Shown here: piece by piece, positions 2,081 to 37,273 of the stretch
Layout of the letters: every line of letters starts with the position of its first letter
Numbering within the stretch: position 1 is the first letter of the stretch
NCBI RefSeq assembly: GCF_041248615.1
Contig: NZ_CP158426.1
Length of the DNA stretch: 64,000 nucleotides
DNA from: Escherichia coli
Lineage (GTDB): Bacteria > Pseudomonadota > Gammaproteobacteria > Enterobacterales > Enterobacteriaceae
Reading direction: 5' to 3' (one strand)
The notes under the pieces: generated by a model
Database searches by the model: none
Told to the model about the DNA's origin: nothing
Seen by the model: only the letters and a program-made list of their open reading frames with translations
Translations under genes and position numbers: made by a program

Positions 2081-3061
2081 ATGCGCAAATATCGTCTAAG
2101 TGAAGAACAGCGAGCCTTTAGTTATCAGGAAGATGGCACTAAAAAAAATGTGTTATTACGGCAGATTATCGCCATTAGCGATTTTAACGATGTGATAGCA
2201 GGAACCGCTGGCGGCTGGATCGATCGCGAAACGGTGTTAGCACAGGAAGGAAATTGCTGGATTTACGACCAGAATGCTATTGCGTTCGGCGGAACGGTGA
2301 TTTCCGGTAATACGCGTATCACCGGCACCAGCGTGCTGTGGGGAGAGGTTTACGCAACGGATAACGTCTGGATCGATAATAGTGAAATCAGCCAGGGTGC
2401 ATATATAAGTGACAGTGTCACCATTCATGACTCATTAGTTTACGGGCAATGTAGAATATTTGGTCACGCCTTAATTGATCAACATTCTATGATCGTCGCC
2501 GCACAAGGCTTAACGCCCGACCATCAACTCCTGCTACAAATTTATGATCGCGCAAGGGTTAGCGCCTCGCGTATTGTTCACCAGGCACAAATTTATGGCG
2601 ATGCCGTCGTCCGGTATGCTTTTATTGAACATCGCGCCGAAGTTTTTGATTTTGCCAGCGTTGAAGGTAATGAAGAGAACAACGTCTGGCTATGCGATTG
2701 CGCTAAAGTCTACGGTCACGCGCAGGTGAAAGCTGGCATAGAAGAAGATGCCATTCCGACGATTCATTACAGTTCGCAGGTGGCGGAATATGCCATTGTG
2801 GAAGGTAATTGTGTGTTAAAACATCATGTCTTGATTGGCGGAAATGCCGTGGTACGTGGCGGACCGATTCTGCTCGACGAGCACGTTGTAATACAAGGTG
2901 AGAGCCGTATTACAGGTGCGGTGATAATTGAAAAACATGTGGAGTTAACCGACCACGCCGTCGTTGAAGCCTTTGATGGCGACACGGTTCATGTCCGTGG
3001 TCCAAAAGTCATTAACGGCGAGGAGCGCATTACGCGAACGCCGCTGGCAGGGTTATTGTGA
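2081..3061 (+). CDS. ydcK: uncharacterised protein YdcK (326 aa, hexapeptide-repeat-like)
   Basis: Track ORF; repetitive beta-helix-like sequence; position between tehA and rimL as in K-12. Confidence 0.85.
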
Positions 3062-3592
3062 ATCGATAATACGCGCGTATAAGTTCACATCATCATAGGC
3101 ATCATTCAGGAACTCAGCCTGTTTCAGACAACCTTCAAGGATAAAACCATTGCGCAAAGCGACCTGGTTGCTTTGCGGATTGTCCACCCGACATTTGATC
3201 ACGAAGCGTCTAAGTTCACCAGACTGAGCGTAATGATGAATCAATGCCTGCAGCGCCTGAGAAATGATCCCCTGCCCCTGATGAGATTCGTCCAGCCAGT
3301 AGCCGATTTCAGCGGTTTTATTCAGTGGTTCAATACGATTAAACGAGATAACGCCGATAAGTTCATCTTCTTTGAAAATCATGAACATTTTGGCATATCC
3401 GCGTTGATGCAACATTACATTGCCCTGCACCGTTTTTCGCGTGTCCTCTTCACTTTGAACAAACTGCGGCCAGTTTAGCGACTGCTGTAACCAGGTTCTA
3501 TTTTTACAGATTAACTGATAAAGAGGTGTGACATGACTTTCTGCAACAGCATGTAATTCAAGTGATTCACTTACTTTTATCGTTTCGGTCAT
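3053..3592 (-). CDS. rimL: ribosomal-protein L7/L12 serine acetyltransferase RimL (179 aa)
   Basis: Track ORF 3053-3607 trimmed to [16 protein letters not shown]...; GNAT acetyltransferase; 9-nt convergent overlap with ydcK. Confidence 0.88.
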
Positions 3593-3621
3593 CTTATCTC
3601 CAGTCAATCCATGCAGTTGTT

Positions 3622-3646
3622 AAAAAAGCCGCCTGGCTGGCGGCTT
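3622..3646 (-). terminator. intrinsic terminator downstream of ydcH
   Basis: GCCGCC-loop-GGCGGC hairpin with A-run on plus strand (T-run on minus) just past the ydcH stop; approximate coordinates. Confidence 0.5.
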
Positions 3647-3654
3647 AGGAAAGT

Positions 3655-3879
3655 TTACACCTCTTTGACGCTCTCCTGCTGCAGGATTTTGAGCATCTCA
3701 TCTTTTAACTGTAGCTTTTGTTTTTTCATGCGGACCACTTCCGCATTGTACCCTCGACCGTCGGAACCTTCCTTTCTGGCAATTTCATGATCAAGTTTAT
3801 TGTGTTTATCGAACAAGGACATAAAGCGAGGATTTTCGTTTTTCAGACGGGATATTAAATCTCGGTATTCTGGAAACAT
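3655..3879 (-). CDS. ydcH: small protein YdcH (74 aa, DUF465-like)
   Basis: Track ORF trimmed to MFPEYRDLISRLKNENPRF...; recognised as YdcH. Confidence 0.85.
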   Translation of the reverse strand: MFPEYRDLISRLKNENPRFMSLFDKHNKLDHEIARKEGSDGRGYNAEVVRMKKQKLQLKDEMLKILQQESVKEV

Positions 3880-26132: not shown

Positions 26133-27029
26133 TCAGTAACAGCAGTAGCGAATAAAATAAAAAAATACCGGAGCGGTGAAAATTAATGAGTCAATCCTGT
26201 CAAGGAGTCCGCCATGTCCTGGTAATAGTTTTCCACTATCTTTAACACCAATATCTCGTTTGATGGCTGACATCACTACATCGCCGCAAAAACCACTAAT
26301 ACCAATTAACAAACCCGTTAATAATGCCTGTAATGTATTTACCGGTGTCAGTAACGGTCCAATAATCAGTGACACAATCATGGTAGTGATTACGCCCCCC
26401 ACCAGACCTTCCAGCGTTTTTCCCGGGCTGACTTTGGGGACCACTTTTCTTCTGCCGCAGGATTTCCCCCATAAATACTGTGCAATATCGTTTGACTCGG
26501 TTAATGCCAAAAGAAATAACACCAGTAACGCCTCGCCCTGGATATTTATGGTTGGCAACATTAACAACCAGGCGGCATGACTCAAGGCGAAAACGATCAT
26601 TATCCAGCCCCAAAAAATGGCGCTCACAGTATGCAGAAAACCGGAGGGGTCCCCCACAAAAACTTGCCCGGTGGCTAATATCAGAAACCCAGCCAAAGGT
26701 ATAAATAACAGATACAGCTCAAAGCAATTAAAACCGATAAACAAATAGTTAAGAGGAATACCCCAATATAACCAACGCGGAAAATGTACAGATATAAGCG
26801 TACAATATTCTTTCAATGCCAGAAAACTTATCAGCGCAAAAAACGTCAACGTCATCCAGCGTGGACCTGAAATCACCATTGAAAAACAAATGACGATGCC
26901 CCACCAGGTACGAATACGTAATGTAACTTCATCCCCTTTTCTCTCCGGTAACCGCCATATCAGAAAACGGTTTATCAGCGTTGCTAAAATTAACAACGCG
27001 AAAAGTGTTGCCAGAGATTTTTCCAGCAT
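26133..27029 (-). CDS. ynbB: CDP-diglyceride synthetase (CdsA) paralog YnbB (298 aa)
   Basis: Track ORF; CdsA-like C-terminal motif GHGGLLDRIDSLIF. Confidence 0.85.
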   Translation of the reverse strand: MLEKSLATLFALLILATLINRFLIWRLPERKGDEVTLRIRTWWGIVICFSMVISGPRWMTLTFFALISFLALKEYCTLISVHFPRWLYWGIPLNYLFIGFNCFELYLLFIPLAGFLILATGQVFVGDPSGFLHTVSAIFWGWIMIVFALSHAAWLLMLPTINIQGEALLVLFLLALTESNDIAQYLWGKSCGRRKVVPKVSPGKTLEGLVGGVITTMIVSLIIGPLLTPVNTLQALLTGLLIGISGFCGDVVMSAIKRDIGVKDSGKLLPGHGGLLDRIDSLIFTAPVFFYFIRYCCY

Positions 27030-27640
27030 TATCTTTCAGCGCTCATAAGAAGCACACTCCGACAACGATTAATCGCAGTCCAGAGAAGCAGAATTGAAGC
27101 AATGCTCCATAAAAGATTATTCCATTGCATCCATTGTGGATAAATGGCAATGGCCAGCCCCCACAAACCAAATATTAACGCGCGATCGCTTTTGCCAAAT
27201 GGACCGACATAACTACGAATACCGTTAATCGTCTGCGCGAGTAAACCGCAAAACTCGGTCAATATGGTGCAAAATAACATGAGTATCACGAGTGATGCAT
27301 TACTTTCAGGTAAAAATAAAAACGGTAAATAGAGCGCAATATCGGAAATAACATCGCCAGTCTCATTCAAAATCGCCCCAAGACGTGTTTGCTGATTGCA
27401 CTCACGCGCCAACATGCCATCCAGCGCATTGAGTGCCATACGAATAAAAAGCACGATGGGCAATAGCAGAAACATGCCAGGATATGGCACCAACGCCAAC
27501 AACAAACCGGTGAGAAGAGAAAGTGCCAAAGCGGCAAGTGTGATCTGATTTGCAGACACTTGCAGCTTATGAAGCCAAAACATCGTCGGCCTTAACAGCG
27601 ACTGAAAGAGCGGTTTTATCTGGTAGAGCGTCATTATCAA
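27029..27640 (-). CDS. ynbA: CDP-alcohol phosphatidyltransferase-family inner membrane protein YnbA (about 203 aa)
   Basis: Track ORF; first gene of the ynbABCD operon; overlaps ynbB start/stop. Confidence 0.85.
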   Translation of the reverse strand: MIMTLYQIKPLFQSLLRPTMFWLHKLQVSANQITLAALALSLLTGLLLALVPYPGMFLLLPIVLFIRMALNALDGMLARECNQQTRLGAILNETGDVISDIALYLPFLFLPESNASLVILMLFCTILTEFCGLLAQTINGIRSYVGPFGKSDRALIFGLWGLAIAIYPQWMQWNNLLWSIASILLLWTAINRCRSVLLMSAER

Positions 27641-27803
27641 TCCTTGATAATTCTGTTTGCGCTATGGTGCATCAATTGCCCTGACAGAGATATCGCAACA
27701 CGCCGCTTCATTAAAAATTCAGAATATATCAAGGTATTGGGGCTCACTGTCAGGAATGATTATCCCCAAATTAATCAAATAGTTAAAAATATTACGCTGT
27801 TAT

Positions 27804-30110
27804 TCAATGCAACTCATCAAGTTTTCTCATCGCTTGTTCCCGTATTGCGCGCGTCTTACCGTTAAGCGCCAGCTGGCGGACTAAATCCAGTTCAGGTTTA
27901 ACAAGCTCTAACGCCAGCAAAGGATCACGTTTCAGCCTCGCCTTCAATACATCAACTGGGAAACGGGGATTATTCATCGCCATAATCCACCACTCGGGAT
28001 CAATTTCTGCCGCCAGTGCCGCAGACGGTGTATGGCGATTGTTAAGTGCGCCGAACTTGAAAAATGTAAGATTGCTTTTCGCCAGCGTACTCCACCATAT
28101 ACGATCCGGTTGTTTTGCCAGTTTATCCAGTTGCGCTAACGCATCGGGGTCAAGTGCATAATAAACACGTAACGCTTCGTTAACCTGCGCACGAGAGCTG
28201 TTTTCCTGCCTCAGAAAAAACTTCGCCCAAATATCATTGCGTGGTATATTTTGCTGTAATTCCTTGAGGACAACAGCGGGTAAATTATCCCAACTAACTA
28301 ATGCACTCTCTAAAAAGTCCCAGCCTTCCGAACGTATCAGAGAGGTGGCATTTAATAGCATCTGGTCATCAACTTCACCGTGGCTAATCAGCTCAGACAA
28401 AATCATATCAGCGCTGGTTTCATATGCTGCAGAATCTGCTTTCGGATTATTTTTCCGATGCGATAAAGCACGTTGCCAAATTTTTTGTTTCATCGACGTG
28501 CTCAGATACTGATTTTTCGCCAAATTACTCCACCCCTCAGGATCGTTGAAACGTGTCAATAACCGTTGTAAAGCAGCGTCAGAGTGAATTATCTGCATAT
28601 CCCGACAGCAAAAGTAGGCAGGGGATTTTTTCTCCATCCTTTTAACAAAATTAAACTGTAAGTTATCTGGCAACGCTAAAAATAACGTACCTATTAGATC
28701 ATCGTCATTCTCGAATTTTTGGTATAAATATACTGCTATTTTGTGACTCTCTTGTGGCGTCATCCGCAACAATTGACCATGGTGTTTCATCTCTGCCAGC
28801 TTTGACGCTAAGCTTGTGACAACATCGTTTGATGAATCGTTCGCCAACTGCATTGCCTGATTGTAGGTGAGTTGTCCTCCAGCACCGACCTGACGAATAG
28901 AGAAATCATCACTGCGGATATAGCCATCAATAATGGATTCGGGCAATAACCACGCATCTTTATAAAGCTCCTGAATGATCATATCCCAATCTCTTTTCGC
29001 CAGAGTCATGACGATATCCAGAGGGAGATTTTCACGTAGCGCAAGATTCAACGGACCGACACCATCAGGTAGATGACTCATTCGCGTCATTATTTCGACA
29101 GAGAGCGGTTCACGGTCGAGCAACCCCAGAACAACAGGCTGGTAACCCAATTGCTGATCGGTCAACTCCAGAATCTCATTGTCAGGCATATATCTCGCCA
29201 TACTTGCAATCGTTTGTCCATCATTGCTATTAATAAGTTGTTTGCGTAGGTTAGCTGAAATTCCTTTAAGCCTTGGGAGAGTTCGCATTATGGCAAGATC
29301 AAATGTCGCAATGTCTCGTCCTTCAAATGCAGCAACGTTGCCTTCATCCAGCATTTGTAATTCCTGCACTAATTCAGGTGAAGGCTTAGGGCGAAACAGC
29401 GCTTCTTTTTTCATCTGATTACAGACATTCCCTGCTATGCGAATATTGCTTCGCTTAAAAATTTCTTTCAGAGCATCTTCATCATTTATTAGGCCCCAAT
29501 AATATGCATCAGGATTTATTATCGTCAGCGCTTTTTTGACATTTTCAGTGTCATTTTTGTCACTCGCACGGACCATGAATTCACTATTTGTCGAAGACGC
29601 AACAACAGGTGCGATTATATCATTGATAAATATCCCGCGCGCATTAATACTCCCCTTAATCGTAGACGGATTATCGTAATATGAGTCGATAAATACCAGT
29701 CCACTTGCATTTATCGAACCGGTAATTAACAGTGGTGAATCCGTAACTATATTCGTTGCCGTCACGTTACCGAGAATAACCCATGGATTAGAAAGAGAGA
29801 AAGTGGAAATATTACCTTTGACTGTCAAATTGCCAAGAACAATCAATTTTTGATTACTCTCTATATTACCTTCTACCACTAAATCGCCACGATGCACTTT
29901 CCAGTCCGATGCAGATAAACCGAAGGGGACAAGATTCACGCTACTGTTGATAGCTTGTTCAACTTGTTGTTTATCTTCAGCGGTAGCCGCAGAAAAAAAT
30001 GGTTCAATATCAACTGCATTTGCAACACATCGAAGTTCCGCCTGTACTGGAAGACTCAGCATAAACAGGGGAAGTAAACCTATCCAGCTGCAAATCCTGG
30101 GCTTAAACAT
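27804..30110 (-). CDS. ydbD: uncharacterised exported protein YdbD (about 768 aa)
   Basis: Track ORF 27804-30116; signal peptide after MFKPRICSWIGLLPLFMLSLPVQA; start trimmed by two codons, uncertain. Confidence 0.8.
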   Translation of the reverse strand: MFKPRICSWIGLLPLFMLSLPVQAELRCVANAVDIEPFFSAATAEDKQQVEQAINSSVNLVPFGLSASDWKVHRGDLVVEGNIESNQKLIVLGNLTVKGNISTFSLSNPWVILGNVTATNIVTDSPLLITGSINASGLVFIDSYYDNPSTIKGSINARGIFINDIIAPVVASSTNSEFMVRASDKNDTENVKKALTIINPDAYYWGLINDEDALKEIFKRSNIRIAGNVCNQMKKEALFRPKPSPELVQELQMLDEGNVAAFEGRDIATFDLAIMRTLPRLKGISANLRKQLINSNDGQTIASMARYMPDNEILELTDQQLGYQPVVLGLLDREPLSVEIMTRMSHLPDGVGPLNLALRENLPLDIVMTLAKRDWDMIIQELYKDAWLLPESIIDGYIRSDDFSIRQVGAGGQLTYNQAMQLANDSSNDVVTSLASKLAEMKHHGQLLRMTPQESHKIAVYLYQKFENDDDLIGTLFLALPDNLQFNFVKRMEKKSPAYFCCRDMQIIHSDAALQRLLTRFNDPEGWSNLAKNQYLSTSMKQKIWQRALSHRKNNPKADSAAYETSADMILSELISHGEVDDQMLLNATSLIRSEGWDFLESALVSWDNLPAVVLKELQQNIPRNDIWAKFFLRQENSSRAQVNEALRVYYALDPDALAQLDKLAKQPDRIWWSTLAKSNLTFFKFGALNNRHTPSAALAAEIDPEWWIMAMNNPRFPVDVLKARLKRDPLLALELVKPELDLVRQLALNGKTRAIREQAMRKLDELH

Positions 30111-30173
30111 ATGCACTCCATGCCATTAAAAAAGAAACAAAAGGGAAATGCATCTTTCCCTTTTGTATATTCG

Positions 30174-31034
30174 TTATTCTCGCGATATACCATCCAACGT
30201 AGACAACACTTCCTCAGAAAGATGCAATTTTTCAGCAGCCATATTCTCCCGTAAATGCGCAACAGAAGACGTCCCTGGGATCAGCAAAATATTCGGTGAA
30301 CGTTGTAACAGCCACGCCAGCGCCACCTGCATGGGTGTTGCACCCAGGCTCGCAGCAACATCCGACAGCGTAGAGGATTGCAGCGGTGTAAAGCCCCCGA
30401 GCGGGAAGAACGGCACGTAAGCAATGCCATCGTGGGCCAAAGCATCAATCATTGCATCATCAGCACGGTGCGCGATGTTGTATTCGTTTTGCACACAGAC
30501 AATTTCGGCAATCTTGCGCGCCTCTGCAACCTGCGTCGGTGTGACGTTGCTCAGGCCAATATGTTTTACCAGGCCTTGTTGTTGCATCTCTGCCAGCACG
30601 GTCAGGCTGGCCTCAATCGATCCTTCCGCTGGGCCATGACCATCCCCCATCATAACGCGCAGGTTAACCACATCCAGTACGTCCAGGCCGAGATTACGTA
30701 GATTATCGTGCACCGCTTTTTGCAACTCTGCCGGAGAAAAGGCGGGCAACCAGGAAGCGTCCTCTCCACGCCGCGCACCAATTTTAGTGACAATTGTCAG
30801 GTCGTCAGAGTAAGGATAAAGCGCTTCGCGGATAATCTGATTGGTGACGTGCGGACCATAAAAGTCGCTGGTATCAATGTGATTGACGCCCAATGCCAGC
30901 GCCTCGCGCAGTACAGTTATAGCGACGTGGCGATCTCTTGGGGGGCCAAAAACCCCAGGACCTGCCAGTTGCATCGCGCCATAACCAAGACGGTTAACGG
31001 ATTTTGTACCGAGAGTAAATGTATTGCTGCTCAT
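30174..31034 (-). CDS. pdxI: pyridoxine 4-dehydrogenase / aldo-keto reductase PdxI (YdbC), 286 aa
   Basis: Track ORF; aldo-keto reductase fold; recognised as ydbC/pdxI. Confidence 0.88.
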   Translation of the reverse strand: MSSNTFTLGTKSVNRLGYGAMQLAGPGVFGPPRDRHVAITVLREALALGVNHIDTSDFYGPHVTNQIIREALYPYSDDLTIVTKIGARRGEDASWLPAFSPAELQKAVHDNLRNLGLDVLDVVNLRVMMGDGHGPAEGSIEASLTVLAEMQQQGLVKHIGLSNVTPTQVAEARKIAEIVCVQNEYNIAHRADDAMIDALAHDGIAYVPFFPLGGFTPLQSSTLSDVAASLGATPMQVALAWLLQRSPNILLIPGTSSVAHLRENMAAEKLHLSEEVLSTLDGISRE

Positions 31035-31189
31035 CGCACCCTGCCCTGTAATAAAACGGATTGAGAAAAATCAGTATAGAAACGAAAAGAGATAAATAAT
31101 GCGAAGGCGTAAACAAGATTACTGGATGAGTTGCTCTATTGTCCTGAAAGACACCAAAACAAAACGCGTAAAGCGCCGCATTCGGCAAT

Positions 31190-31222
31190 AAAAAAACCGC
31201 AACCTGTATCAGCGTTGCGGTT
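31190..31222 (-). terminator. intrinsic terminator downstream of paaY
   Basis: AACCGCAAC-loop-GTTGCGGTT hairpin with A7 on plus strand (T7 on minus) 45 nt past the paaY stop. Confidence 0.6.
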
Positions 31223-31265
31223 TAGGTATCACATGCTAAAAATTAGAACGTCCAGCATCAGGACG

Positions 31266-31856
31266 TTACTGTTTCGGTCGCAGATTCTCATCAAATACCA
31301 AGCGTTTCCTGCCAGGTTCAACTTCCCGCAATGGCTCAACTTGATGTAACGTCTGCTTACAGCGTGTCACCAGCACCTGGTACTCATGCGTACCCTGCTT
31401 TTTCCATGCCAACTCCTGCTCACTGAGTTCACGAATCGCTTTCGCCGGGCTGCCGACAATCAGGTAATTAGCAGGCATTTCTGCTTTGGCTTTCACAAAT
31501 GCGGATGCACCCACAATACTGTTCTCACCAATCACCGCACCGTCCATCACTACCGCATTCATTCCCACTAATGCATTGCGGCGGATAATGCAGCCGTGAA
31601 GGATAGCGCTATGACCAATATGCCCATCTTCTTCCACGACAGTATCCTGCTCGGGAAAACCGTGCATAACGCAATTATCCTGAATGTTCGCGCCATCTTT
31701 CACCACGATACGACCAAAATCGCCACGCAGGCTGGCATTTGGCCCAACGTACACGCCCTTGCCGAGAATAACATCGCCGATCAATACCGCTGTCGGATGG
31801 ACAAAACTCTCTTCTGGCACAACCGGAGTCAGACCGTCTATCTGATAAATTGGCAT
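31266..31856 (-). CDS. paaY: hexapeptide-repeat thioesterase PaaY (196 aa)
   Basis: Track ORF; recognised as PaaY. Confidence 0.92.
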
Positions 31857-32788
31857 AACGCCTCCTGTTCAATATTCAAGCCGCCAAAACGTTGAAAATA
31901 CAGGCTTCCCGGCGCAGGCAATTCACCGACCGAGGTTTCACCTTTTTCACTAACGAACGCTAAAGCAGCAGGCGCTACGCGCTGATAAATGTTGATACAC
32001 AGCTGACGCGCCGTATGCCCTGCCCAGTGTGCCGGAAGCAACTCCTCCGGCAACAATGGGTCTTTAAGGACGACACGGCGATAAAAATGGATCAGTAAAA
32101 GCTGAATATGAAATGCCCGCTCCGGGGTTAACTCGTCTGCCGTCTCTTTTAACAGCGGCACCAGCGGGCGGAATGACTGAATAAAGGTTTCGTACATGGC
32201 ATTTTGTTCAGTTAAATGCCAGCACTCTTCTACTCTGGCACGCAGTGCTGCGCGAGAAAGCGCCAGTGGTATTTGCGCTTCAAAACAAATCACGTTATCC
32301 GCCACACCCGCTTCATGCAAAAGTGTCTGTACATCGGCCAGTTTTTGCGACGGCGATGCCATCAGGCTGGGTGCCAGTGCGCCAAAACCTTGCCAGATCA
32401 ACTGCTTTTTGACATCAGCCAGCGTCGTTTTATCTAAACCTTCCGAGAGCAACAGGAGCCATTTACCATCCCATGCAGGTTGCTCTGCGCGATAAATTTT
32501 ACTTTCTGCCCGTCGCGTCAGGCGCAAGCCTTTATCACTGAGGCTATAGAAACTGCGTCGCCCGATGCGGGAAACATCCAGCCAGCCTTCTTTATTAAGA
32601 CGAAACAAAGCGGTGCGCACGAAACGCTCACCAAATCCCAGCCCTTCCAGCAAAGCAGCCAGACTACCCAGCCAGATTTCACCACCACGATGGGAAAGCG
32701 AATCACCATACAGAGAGGAGATCAAAGATGTGCCACTGACAGGAACAGCGTTTACAGCATGTTGGATAAAAGTATCAAGTTTACTCAT
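31838..32788 (-). CDS. paaX: phenylacetyl-CoA-responsive transcriptional repressor PaaX (316 aa)
   Basis: Track ORF; recognised as PaaX; overlaps paaY start by 19 nt. Confidence 0.92.
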
Positions 32789-32888
32789 TCGATTCAGTCT
32801 GTTGTTATTGTTGTGATTTATGAATCATAGCACAGGTCGTATCGACTTCTGGCCCTGGCGGTTTACCTCACCAGGGCCAGGCGACACG

Positions 32889-34202
32889 TCAGGCACCAAC
32901 AATATTGCGCAGATCAAACACCCGACACGCCTTGCCTTCTGAACGCGGGATACTGCCACAGTTAACGATCATCACATCGGTAGAGATCCCCACCATCGAC
33001 TTAATCCGATGGCGCAGCTGGTGGCACACCTGGCAACGCTGCTCATGCGTCAATGTCAGGCTACTTTCTTTCAACTCCACTTTCACAGAAAGTGAATCAA
33101 GATGCCCCCGGCGGTTCACCTCCAGTTGGTAATGCGGCGATAAATGTTCGAATTTGACAATCTCTTCTTCCAGTTGCGACGGAAAGACATTTACACCGCG
33201 AATAATCAACATGTCATCGCTGCGTCCGCTGATGCGATCCATGCGGCGCATAGTCCGCGCCGTTCCTGGTAACAGTCGGGTTAAATCACGCGTGCGGTAA
33301 CGAATGACCGGCAATGCTTCTTTGGTCAGCGTGGTGAATAACAGTTCTCCATGTTCACCATCGGCAAGCGGTGTGCCGTCATGAGGATTAACAATTTCAG
33401 GATAGAAATGATCTTCCCAAATGGTTGGGCCGTCGGTAGTTTCCAGACACTCCATCGCCACCCCCGGCCCCATCACTTCTGACAGGCCATAAATATCCAG
33501 TGCGGTGATCCCCAGGCGACGCTCAATTTCTTTACGCATGGCCTGTGTCCACGGCTCAGCACCAAACACTCCAACCCGCAGCGAGCAACCGCTGGCATCA
33601 CCGCCCAACTGCCGCTCCAGCTCTTCAATCAGGTTAAGGCAATAAGATGGCGTAACCATGATCATATCTGGTTGAAAATCGCGGATCAGTTGCGCTTGTT
33701 TTTCCGTCTGCCCACCAGACATCGGGATCACCGTAGCGCCCAGACGTTCGGCACCATAGTGCGCACCCAGCCCACCAGTAAACAGGCCGTAACCATAGGC
33801 AACATGAATTTTATCTTTGGGCGTGCCACCTGCCGCACGCAAGGAACGCGCTACTATATTGGCCCAGTTATCAATATCGTTTTGCGTATAGCCAACAACT
33901 GTCGGTTTACCTGTTGTTCCCGAAGAAGCATGAATGCGCACCACTTGTTCCATCGGCACGGCAAAGGTGTCGAAAGGATAGTTGTCGCGCAGATCCTGTT
34001 TGGTGGTACAGGGAAATTTACGCAGGTCAGAAAGTTCCCTGAAATCATCAGGATGTACGCCTGCTGCGTCGAATTTGCGCCGATACATCGGGACATTTTC
34101 ATACGCGTGTTTGAGCGTCCATTTCAGACGCTGTGTTTGCAACGCCTGTAACTCATCTACAGACGCGGTTTCAATCGGGTCAAGCTTTGTATTGGTTATC
34201 AT
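32889..34202 (-). CDS. paaK: phenylacetate-CoA ligase PaaK (437 aa)
   Basis: Track ORF 32889-34286 begins at GTG; trimmed to internal ATG (MITNTKLDPIETASVDELQ...). Confidence 0.9.
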   Translation of the reverse strand: MITNTKLDPIETASVDELQALQTQRLKWTLKHAYENVPMYRRKFDAAGVHPDDFRELSDLRKFPCTTKQDLRDNYPFDTFAVPMEQVVRIHASSGTTGKPTVVGYTQNDIDNWANIVARSLRAAGGTPKDKIHVAYGYGLFTGGLGAHYGAERLGATVIPMSGGQTEKQAQLIRDFQPDMIMVTPSYCLNLIEELERQLGGDASGCSLRVGVFGAEPWTQAMRKEIERRLGITALDIYGLSEVMGPGVAMECLETTDGPTIWEDHFYPEIVNPHDGTPLADGEHGELLFTTLTKEALPVIRYRTRDLTRLLPGTARTMRRMDRISGRSDDMLIIRGVNVFPSQLEEEIVKFEHLSPHYQLEVNRRGHLDSLSVKVELKESSLTLTHEQRCQVCHQLRHRIKSMVGISTDVMIVNCGSIPRSEGKACRVFDLRNIVGA

Positions 34203-34228
34203 TGTAGGGTACTCGCAGGTTGATATGC

Positions 34229-35434
34229 TCAAACACGCTCCAGGATCATGGCGATGCCCTGACCGACACCGATGCACATGGTGCACAATGCGTAACGACC
34301 GTTACGCCGATGCAGCTCATGGCTGGCAGCCAGTGCCAGGCGGGCACCACTCATTCCCAACGGATGGCCTAAGGCGATAGCGCCTCCGTTGGGGTTAACA
34401 TGTGGGGCATCATCAGGTAGCCCCAATTCGCGTAGTACACCCAACGCCTGGGCCGCGAACGCTTCGTTCAGTTCAATCACGTCCATATCGTGAATACTCA
34501 ACCCCGCGCGTTCCAGCACCCGACGAGTTGCAGGCACCGGACCAAGCCCCATCAGGCGCGGTTCCACCCCGGCGGTTGCCATGGCTACGATACGCGCTCG
34601 CGGTGTCAGTCCTTGCGCTGCTGCCATCTGTTCACTGGCAATAATCAACGCAGCGGCTCCATCATTCACCCCGGAGGCATTGCCTGCGGTGATCACTCCA
34701 TTGGCACGAAATGGTGCTTTTAGTCCACGTAACTGTTCCAGCGTCGTTTCCGGGCGCAGATGCTCGTCATGTTGTATTTCTGTTACAACACCTTTTTTGT
34801 TTTTCAACACAACCGGAACAATCTCTTCAGCTAAAATGCCTGAAGATTGCGCTTTTGCTGTACGTTGCTGACTGCGTAGCGCAAAACTATCTTGATCTTC
34901 TCGCGAGATTTTTAACAGTTCAGCTACATTCTCTGCCGTTTCCGGCATGCTGTCAGTTCCAAATTGTTGAGCCATGAGCGGGTTCACAAATCGCCAGCCA
35001 ATAGTGGTATCAAACATCTCAGCCTGACGAGAAAATGCACTGGTTGCCTTGCCCATAACAAACGGTGCCCGAGACATTGACTCCACGCCACCAGCGATCA
35101 GCAAATCGCCATCGCCCGCTTTAATCGCCCGTGCGGCGAACCCCAGTGCGTCCAGTCCGGAACCACACAAGCGGTTAATGGTTGTGCCGGAAACACTCTG
35201 CGGCAGCCCCGCCAGTAAAGTCGCCATCCGGGCTACGTTACGGTTATCTTCTCCCGCCTGATTAGCACAGCCGAGGATCACATCATCGATACATTCCGCA
35301 TCGAGACGCGGGTTTCGCACCAGCAGTTCCCGCAAAGGGATAGCAGCCAGATCATCAGCCCGAACACCTGATAATGCCCCGCCGTAGCGACCAATTGGCG
35401 TACGAATTCCGTCACAGATAAAGGCTTCACGCAT
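34229..35434 (-). CDS. paaJ: 3-oxoadipyl-CoA / 3-oxo-5,6-dehydrosuberyl-CoA thiolase PaaJ (401 aa)
   Basis: Track ORF; thiolase family. Confidence 0.92.
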
Positions 35435-35856
35435 CAGGCTTCTCCTGTAATGGTGCCGCCGATGCGGTGAGATTTACCGCGAAACAGCGCAACCGTTTTT
35501 TGTTGTTGGTTAACAATTTCGATGTCGTAAACACCGGTTTGCTTGCCCTGATGACGTACCTGCGCAGTAGCAGTTAAGGTGTCTCCGGCAAAGCCTGGAC
35601 GCAAAAAATCAATCGTGCAGGCAGAAGCGACGGCTGCCAGCCCCTGGCTATTGCAGGCGTAGGCAAAGGCAGTATCAGCCAGTGAAAATAGCTGCCCGCC
35701 GTGGCAACTTTGATGACCATTAAGCATTTGTGCAGTGACGGTCATGGTCACTACAGCAAAGCCTTCATCCATTGAGATAATGTCGATGCCAAGCGCTTTG
35801 GCGCAGGCATCGTTCTCATACATTGCATGGGCATTTTGCCAGGCCTTATTACTCAT
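35434..35856 (-). CDS. paaI: hotdog-fold acyl-CoA thioesterase PaaI (140 aa)
   Basis: Track ORF 35434-35919 trimmed to MSNKAWQNAHAMYEND.... Confidence 0.9.
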   Translation of the reverse strand: MSNKAWQNAHAMYENDACAKALGIDIISMDEGFAVVTMTVTAQMLNGHQSCHGGQLFSLADTAFAYACNSQGLAAVASACTIDFLRPGFAGDTLTATAQVRHQGKQTGVYDIEIVNQQQKTVALFRGKSHRIGGTITGEA

Positions 35857-37273
35857 AACCGCTCTCCAGAAGCGCTCGTTGGCGCAGCAATGAACATGGG
35901 CGATAGCGTTCTTCGCCATAGTGATGTTGTAGATTTTCCAGGAGCCTTAATATTCGCTGCCAGCCAAGTTGCGCTCCCCAGGCAAGCGGGCCATATGGAT
36001 AATTCACCCCAAGACGCATGGCGGTATCGATATCCTGTTCAGAGGCCACGCCTTTTTGAAGCGCATCAAGGGCTTCATTGATGATCATTGCTACCGTTCG
36101 CCAAATCAGCATTCCTGGGTAATCTGCAATTTGCAGCACTGTTTTGCCCTGCTGTTGCAGGTAATAAATGGCCTTGCGGGTCGCTGAGTCCGGGTTCACC
36201 GCTGCCGCAGCAATGGTCACCACCTTGCCCGCCATTTTGTCGACCACTACCACCGGGCGTGCCAGTCGTATTGCCAGCGCCTGTGCCGTCTCGCCTTGTG
36301 TCTCAATCAATAAAACATCGTCAATTTCCGTGACACCGTCACTTTTCTTTTCTACTTTCATGGGGCTAAAACTGTCGCTTACCGCTTCCAGGCCAACAAC
36401 TGCCTCACGTTCCGCGCGCCAGTCGTACACGCCCAGCCCACTTTTCTTGCCCAACCGTCCACCAATCACCAGTTCCTGTTGCACCAGCGAAGGTAAAAAA
36501 CGACGCTCCTGCCAGAAAGCGTTAAACACCGAACAGGTGACAGCAAAATTGACGTCCTGACCAATCAGATCGGTTAATTCCAGCGGCCCCATCGGGAAAC
36601 CAGCGCCATCGCGAAGTGCAGCGTCAATCACTTCTGGTGCAGCAACCTGCTCTTCCAGTGCCCGCCAGGCCTCGGAATAATAAGGACGCGCAACACGGTT
36701 AACGATAAATCCAGGAGTCGAATGACAGCGCACAGGCTGCTTACCCCAACTCAACGTTAGTTCACACAACTGCTCAACAACTTCCGCTGCCGTTGCCAGC
36801 CCACTGACCACCTCCACCAACTTCATCACCGGTGCCGGGTTAAAAAAATGCAGCCCCGCAACACGTTCAGGATTTTTTACCTCCGCAGCAATCGCGGTTA
36901 TAGAGATTGACGAAGTGTTAGTGGTCAATAGCGTTTGTGGCGGGCAAACTTCCGCCAGCTGTGCAAAGAGCGCTTTTTTGACTTCCAGACGTTCAGACGC
37001 CGCTTCAATGACCAGGTCCGCAGCTGCCAGCGCGTGAATATCGGTCACCGGGATCAGGCGTTTCAATGTGCGTTCACAGGTTTCAGCAGTCAGTTTTCCC
37101 CGCGTCACTCGTGAATTTAGCCGCGCGTGTATCCCGTCGATTGCGCGGGTCAGCGCTTCAGCAGAAATGTCATACAGTAAAACCTGATGTCCATGACTGG
37201 CGGCAACTTCAGCAATGCCAGCCCCCATGGTGCCGCTCCCAATCACTGCCACAGTTTGCACATTTATCATCAT
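35849..37273 (-). CDS. paaH: 3-hydroxyadipyl-CoA dehydrogenase PaaH (about 474 aa)
   Basis: Track ORF 35849-37393 trimmed to MMINVQTVAVIGSGTMGAGIA (NAD-binding GxGxxG); ATGA overlap with paaG stop. Confidence 0.88.
   Translation of the reverse strand: MMINVQTVAVIGSGTMGAGIAEVAASHGHQVLLYDISAEALTRAIDGIHARLNSRVTRGKLTAETCERTLKRLIPVTDIHALAAADLVIEAASERLEVKKALFAQLAEVCPPQTLLTTNTSSISITAIAAEVKNPERVAGLHFFNPAPVMKLVEVVSGLATAAEVVEQLCELTLSWGKQPVRCHSTPGFIVNRVARPYYSEAWRALEEQVAAPEVIDAALRDGAGFPMGPLELTDLIGQDVNFAVTCSVFNAFWQERRFLPSLVQQELVIGGRLGKKSGLGVYDWRAEREAVVGLEAVSDSFSPMKVEKKSDGVTEIDDVLLIETQGETAQALAIRLARPVVVVDKMAGKVVTIAAAAVNPDSATRKAIYYLQQQGKTVLQIADYPGMLIWRTVAMIINEALDALQKGVASEQDIDTAMRLGVNYPYGPLAWGAQLGWQRILRLLENLQHHYGEERYRPCSLLRQRALLESGYE

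Follow-up and report, generated by a model that had tools for sequence, protein, structure and literature searches.

The 231-bp gap between pdxI and paaY in the analyzed stretch of Escherichia coli DNA (64,000 nucleotides, hereafter the window) is very probably the scar of one old deletion of approximately 6.09 kb. The deletion would have occurred in an ancestor with the order paaY-ydbA-pdxI, and the allele would since have spread and diverged. The first-pass annotation had proposed that the autotransporter gene ydbA was either never acquired or cleanly deleted. Deletion is favored by the retained terminal codons, stop codon, and 3' flank of ydbA and by the gene order in Pseudocitrobacter, which speak against the gene never having been acquired. 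The deletion was also not clean, i.e., the junction contains 4-5 nt of filler and an extra loss of 11 nt.

The genes on the minus strand of the window were ordered as hrpA, azoR (placed on the plus strand), ynbDCBA, ydbD, pdxI, paaY, paaX, paaK to paaA, paaZ, tynA, feaB, feaR, ydbL, ynbE, and ydbH. Positions 27000-37000 were 100% identical to NZ_LT599825.1 (isolate NRZ14408) and NZ_OW967178.1. The pdxI product was identical to WP_000097801.1 in the matching RefSeq records and scored 558 bits against NCBIfam NF007695 (cut-off 280), and paaY scored 378 bits against TIGR02287 PaaY (cut-off 319.6). Both genes are on the same strand, and the ORF coordinates bear out the spacing first given for them, i.e., exactly 231 bp from 31035 to 31265. 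The features of the region are as follows.

30174-31034, minus strand: pdxI (ydbC), pyridoxine 4-dehydrogenase, intact, a 286-aa ORF.
31035-31242, minus strand: equivalent of the ydbA-pdxI intergenic region (ydbA 3' flank and pdxI upstream region), retained whole, collinear and 91-97% identical with K-12, P13-6, BHUCD02, O157:H7, and a B2-like strain.
31162-31183, minus strand: second terminator-like hairpin, weaker than the main terminator and located beyond it, with a T-rich run (consensus scan and fold).
31190-31224, minus strand: predicted strong intrinsic terminator, AAACCGCAAC-GCUGAUACAG-GUUGCGGUUU followed by U7 (sequence and fold, both minimum-free-energy and centroid).
31243-31251, minus strand: last 9 nt of ydbA, ACGTTCTAA (ACG TTC TAA, i.e., Thr-Phe-stop), in line with the ydbA 3' flank.
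31247-31267, minus strand: 7-bp hairpin, AACGUCC-UGAUGCU-GGACGUU, spanning the stop codon of paaY and the ydbA remnant (scan and fold).
31252-31264, minus strand: 13-nt junction segment, GTCCTGATGCTGG on the coding strand (alignment to ydbA-bearing genomes).
31266-31856, minus strand: paaY, intact, a 196-aa ORF and the final gene of the paa cluster.

A tblastn search with the intact 1922-aa YdbA (E<=10) detected no YdbA-like coding sequence in the whole 64-kb window, the single match (E=7) being meaningless. The earlier statement that no trace of autotransporter coding sequence was left thus stands at the protein level. It fails at the nucleotide level, where 9 nt of ydbA (31243-31251) and 8 nt more within 31252-31264 are the residue between paaY and pdxI. 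Known RNA families were not found in 30800-31500 (Rfam, E<=1), and the promoter scan found no sigma-70 consensus promoter in 30900-31400. Elsewhere in the window, an IS1414 (IS256-like) transposase gene was observed at about 15809-17017 (L092 8710-9918), within a small cluster of hypothetical genes in the ydcF-hrpA interval. The same cluster is present without IS1414 in strain C4.

The annotation of K-12 DHB4 confirmed the gene order that had been given for K-12, in which paaY and pdxI flank a ydbA interrupted by IS2 and IS30. The order, oriented as in the window, is paaY, a 21-aa ORF, the 5' ydbA fragment, IS2, IS30, the 3' ydbA fragment, and pdxI, and the insertion is located mid-gene (L001 17147-19735). 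BHUCD02 likewise carries IS2 and IS30 within ydbA, and strain P13-6 encodes an uninterrupted ydbA of 5769 bp (1922 aa) at the paaY-pdxI site. O157:H7 shows ydbL-ydbA-pdxI without paa. The size of ydbA varies in E. coli, i.e., 2838 aa in the B2-like strain (L007 9654-18170) and two ORFs in O157:H7 (L006 9655-15312). YdbA amino acid identity among the K-12, O157, and B2 types was 57-69%, and the final approximately 60 nt that were read are well conserved. A repeat search of the ydbA-bearing allele found 294-bp tandem repeats inside the gene.

The breakpoints were located by aligning window positions 30900-31500 to five ydbA-bearing genomes, i.e., K-12, P13-6, BHUCD02, O157:H7 F6321, and the B2-like FDAARGOS_1266. 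Homology was unbroken from pdxI to position 31251 and, in the genomes with paaY, resumed at 31265, one base past the paaY stop codon. The 13-nt segment at 31252-31264 stands in place of 6089 bp of the ydbA-bearing allele (L002 11652-17740). The lost sequence consists of ydbA with its upstream region, the 21-aa ORF, and the terminator that belonged to paaY. The coding strand of the window reads CAG TAA C GTCC TGATGCTG G ACGTTCTAA TTTTTAGC. The ydbA-bearing genomes read CAGTAAC AGATGTAAAATT after paaY, and GGCG TGATGCTG AACTTCAAGAAA ACGTTCTAA TTTTTAGC at the ydbA end. Within the junction segment, TGATGCTG corresponds to the ydbA codons (G)TG ATG CTG, which are sited 12 nt further upstream in ydbA. 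Eleven nucleotides are absent within the remnant, flanked by AAC triplets, i.e., CTGAAC(TTCAAGAAAAC)GTTC. GTCC is a filler of 4-5 nt with no source traced, and no convincing source was found downstream of paaY in K-12-type or B2-type genomes. A GATG microhomology (TAAC-AGATG / GCGT-GATG) is possible, but alone it is insufficient to explain the junction.

The comparison that had been proposed with genomes carrying full-length ydbA, in search of exact breakpoints and flanking direct repeats, thus placed the breakpoints at 31251 and 31265. It detected no direct repeats of at least 12 nt bracketing the lost segment in the ydbA-bearing allele; the only repeats were internal to the ydbA passenger domain. 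Neither IS ends nor a target duplication were found at the junction, and the P13-6 annotation shows no integrase or IS where the variable segment begins and ends. A site-specific or transposon-borne island was also considered as the origin of ydbA and was not supported, as the borders showed no bracketing repeat of that length and, in P13-6, no annotated IS or integrase.

The deletion allele was then searched in 5426 complete E. coli genomes with a 61-nt junction probe (window 31230-31290). The probe matched 2044 of them, 2042 over at least 80% of its length, with identity of at least 99% in 493 genomes, 95-99% in 518, and 90-95% in 1033. All full-length matches among the 60 matches listed were ungapped. 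A 1101-bp span with adjacent paaY and pdxI was found in one place, at least 80% covered, in 2032 genomes, and 3081 of the 5426 carried both the ydbA 3' end and the intergenic region next to it. Roughly 38% of the genomes are ydbA-less, 57% are ydbA-bearing, and 5% are neither. In all ydbA-less genomes among the matches listed, homology ended at ydbA nucleotide 8-9. By serotype name, there are hints that O26:H11 is without ydbA and that O157:H7, O55:H7, and K-12 carry it. At this junction, the window carries a widespread and ordinary E. coli allele rather than a peculiarity of one lineage.

Nine of the nine other ydbA-less genomes that were read, i.e., C4, C8, AR_0069, EcPNK004, Rb-50, 2017.18.04CC, KBN10P04869, O26:H11 FWSEC0001, and KE55, shared the junction length and differed by substitutions only. 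The window has the same fixed-length junction, TAAC-GTCC-(T/A)GAT(G/A)CTG(G/A)AC-GTTCTAA. It also has the other properties of the ydbA-less allele, i.e., same-strand paaY and pdxI about 231 bp apart and a retained ydbA 3' flank with its terminator. Because the junction length is constant and the differences are only base substitutions, a single origin is indicated.

Further changes were observed around the junction in some genomes. C4, Rb-50, and EcPNK004 (L003 21239-21598; L088; L090) keep the pdxI-paaY junction and have lost most of paaX and the remaining paa/fea cluster. Truncated paaX there abuts a truncated HTH gene beside ydbL, which is a second, independent deletion in the region. In 2017.18.04CC (L089 2717-3088), the deletion junction is accompanied by loss of the 5' part of pdxI and the pdxI upstream region. 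The paaY stop codon of Rb-50 is TCA instead of TAA (L088 about 935-965), so that the reading frame continues into the ydbA scar and adds 10 residues to PaaY. In HS-01 (L096 about 3040-3815), the scar is separated from a truncated paaY by about 780 bp of low-complexity, near-pure G/C/A sequence, which seems to be an artefact of assembly or base calling and not a biological feature. Of the 2044 junction matches, three are on records labelled as plasmids.

The gap had been described as containing a strong paaY terminator. A strong G+C-rich stem-loop followed by seven U was indeed recognized at 31190-31224, 3' of the stop codon, and the 141-nt region with it gave z = -3.6 against shuffles in folding. 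A simple terminator scan missed this hairpin, the loop being 10 nt. Its origin is different from that description. In L001, L002, L005, L006, and L007, i.e., every ydbA-bearing E. coli read, the hairpin follows the stop codon of ydbA at a distance of 23 nt. paaY's own K-12-type terminator (AAAGCAGAG...CTCTGCTTT, also given as AAAGCAGAG...CUCUGCUUU, with a T/U-rich run) lies inside the deleted segment. The stem-loop is, judged by its sequence and position, the inherited ydbA terminator and now the first strong predicted terminator after paaY. In KE55, JNEC-KY178, XJ6.1, and GMF065, which are 98-99% identical and the nearest relatives after the two identical records, a 705-bp IS200 (IS200/IS605 tnpA) is located in the gap. 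It occupies an A-run beside the terminator hairpin (window 31191-31196; L004 4197-4901), where the window has no IS200.

The hairpin over the paaY stop codon has an energy of -10.5 kcal/mol in the window, compared with -3.6 in C8, -6.3 in the T->A allele, and -4.2 in the commonest allele (O26 type). Compared with C8, the window has an A->G change that makes the 7-bp hairpin perfect. As a general claim, a conserved and selected element was rejected, because the alleles differ in hairpin energy (-3.6 to -10.5 kcal/mol) and the commonest one has a weak hairpin. A narrower proposal is that the scar is not inert, i.e., that the A->G change of the window lineage and the T->A change of another lineage reflect selection for a paaY 3'-end stabiliser or terminator, or mutation by template switching at a quasi-palindrome. 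We regard it as unlikely; the weak hairpin of the commonest allele argues against general selection. If it were true, a new stabiliser or terminator at the 3' end of paaY would have been made from gene debris, or the hairpin would be a template-switch product.

The deletion reading depends on the remnant being ydbA sequence. The terminal ACGTTCTAA adjoins, without a break, about 200 bp whose homology is undisputed. The second remnant is short (8 to 11 nt) and was found after the fact, and its match to ydbA differs among alleles. In strain C8, the 11-mer TGATGCTGAAC is intact and shows no difference from the ydbA codons just upstream; 3 of 200,000 composition-preserving shuffles gave an equal match. 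The scar of Rb-50 keeps the 10-mer GATGCTGAAC (3/20,000 shuffles), and that of the window the 8-mer TGATGCTG (60/20,000). The ydbA homolog of Pseudocitrobacter faecalis ends with GTGATGCTGAACGTCAAGAAAACGTTCTAA, and an unrelated REP-like palindrome comes after its stop codon. Since the terminal codons are conserved there despite a different 3' flank, these nucleotides belong to ydbA and not to an E. coli intergenic target. From the contiguity of ACGTTCTAA, the polymorphic scar in C8 and Rb-50, and the ydbA end of P. faecalis, the remnant is judged to be real. If TAACGTCC stood downstream of paaY in ydbA-bearing genomes, the junction segment would come from a non-ydbA source. The terminal aromatic residue matters for the assembly of the autotransporter barrel.

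Outgroups for the direction of the event were searched with PdxI in genome contigs. Homologs with 72-79% identity from Alpha- and Betaproteobacteria dominated this search. The useful outgroups that it yielded were E. albertii, one divergent 'E. coli', Pseudocitrobacter, and Kluyvera, and it did not recover E. fergusonii, E. marmotae, or E. ruysiae. The PdxI homologs at 72-79% amino acid identity include many in Mesorhizobium, Rhizobium, Burkholderia, Corallococcus, and others, and the Kluyvera homolog shows 86%. That such distant homologs are almost as close as that of Kluyvera hints at a possible horizontal history of this aldo-keto reductase. P. faecalis has the order paaK-paaX-paaY-ydbA-pdxI-azoR-hrpA, with PaaY and PdxI 90-91% identical to the window proteins and YdbA 50% identical in amino acids to that of P13-6. 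The three-gene order therefore extends beyond Escherichia, as found in one non-Escherichia genome recovered. The order in P. faecalis could in principle reflect block transfer rather than common ancestry.

The opposite direction, in which the empty site is ancestral and ydbA entered the paaY-pdxI interval of other E. coli lineages without ever having been present in this one, is improbable. The type strain of E. albertii does have pdxI without ydbA, the divergence of YdbA in E. coli noted above makes imports possible, and the region is described as genomically heterogeneous (PMC4951805). However, the ydbA-less junction retains the stop codon of ydbA, the two codons before it, and 8-11 nt more of the 3' end. 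Insertion would need ydbA to borrow essential C-terminal codons, including the terminal Phe, from its target site, and the conservation of these codons in Pseudocitrobacter beside another 3' flank also speaks against it. E. albertii has ydbH-ynbE-ydbL-pdxI-ydbD with neither the paa cluster nor ydbA, and its ydbL-pdxI junction is without a remnant, so its state is different from that of the window. The ancestral empty site would be revived if ACGTTCTAATTTTTAGC pre-existed beside paaY or pdxI in lineages that never had ydbA.

By the deletion reading, almost all of ydbA would have been removed, together with a roughly 330-bp A+T-rich upstream region including the 21-aa ORF and the paaY terminator. 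One breakpoint would be a single base past the stop codon of paaY, and the other would precede the stop codon of ydbA by about 30 nt. The junction would be completed by a further loss of 11 nt (TTCAAGAAAAC, between two AAC triplets) and by the filler of 4-5 nt, which makes it more than a simple two-ended deletion. We infer the exact sequence of events: small indels probably arose in the functionless remnant after the deletion. Illegitimate recombination of the microhomology type or replication slippage is the most likely mechanism, because no IS ends or long repeats are found at the breakpoints. Afterwards, paaY would run into the former ydbA terminator, which would separate the paa cluster from pdxI, and the upstream region of pdxI would be untouched. 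The allele would later have spread and diverged into a common E. coli polymorphism.

Removal of ydbA by an IS, i.e., the K-12-type IS2/IS30 or another element, is likewise improbable. K-12 and BHUCD02 have both elements in ydbA, and the locus attracts mobile elements, as IS200 in the gap of the closest relatives of the window illustrates. However, the junction is free of IS ends and target duplication and is common to 2044 genomes, and the mid-gene IS2/IS30 is far from both of its breakpoints, of which one is at the stop codon of paaY and the other 30 nt ahead of that of ydbA. An intact IS-free ydbA exists in P13-6, so IS2/IS30 is a late event of the K-12 lineage. A collapsed or misjoined contig concealing ydbA is practically negligible: the 294-bp tandem repeats can trouble assemblers, but the same junction occurs in 2044 independently finished genomes, ungapped among the matches listed, and two records match 10 kb of the window at 100% identity.

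The absence of ydbA is thus most reasonably considered a derived and very common E. coli allele, not special to the strain of the window, and the terminator serving paaY would be inherited from the deleted gene. The 61-nt probe provides a simple marker separating the deletion from ydbA-bearing alleles. The scar fixes the direction of the event for studies of autotransporter gain and loss or of the mosaic paa region. Beyond annotation, the importance is little.

Variable carriage of ydbA is already published (Goldstone et al. 2016, PMC4951805). The paaY-pdxI region is presented there as a zone of gene-content heterogeneity, and carriage of ydbA varies independently of paa, i.e., full-length ydbA in about 42% of phylogroup A versus about 80% for paa. 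O157:H7, which has ydbA without paa, and E. albertii, which has neither, thus indicate that the paa module and ydbA vary independently, as reported for phylogroup A. The available part of the article gives gene presence/absence only, with no junction sequence, remnant, or direction of the event. Compared with the ydbA-less alleles of O26:H11 FWSEC0001, AR_0069, C8, and C4, the window is identical in junction architecture and length, and only substitutions in the 13-nt scar differ. The P13-6 YdbA matches NCBIfam NF033178 auto_BigA (BigA/YdbA autotransporter adhesins) over its C-terminal 800 aa with 1076 bits, below the curated cut-off (3400), and the window encodes nothing of this protein. The K-12 locus shares with the window the flanking genes, 96-98% identical, their orientation, and the ydbA-pdxI intergenic region with its terminator. 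However, K-12 keeps the whole ydbA as a pseudogene split by two IS, whereas the window retains approximately 18 nt of the gene and also lacks the sequence upstream of ydbA, the 21-aa ORF, and the terminator proper to paaY.
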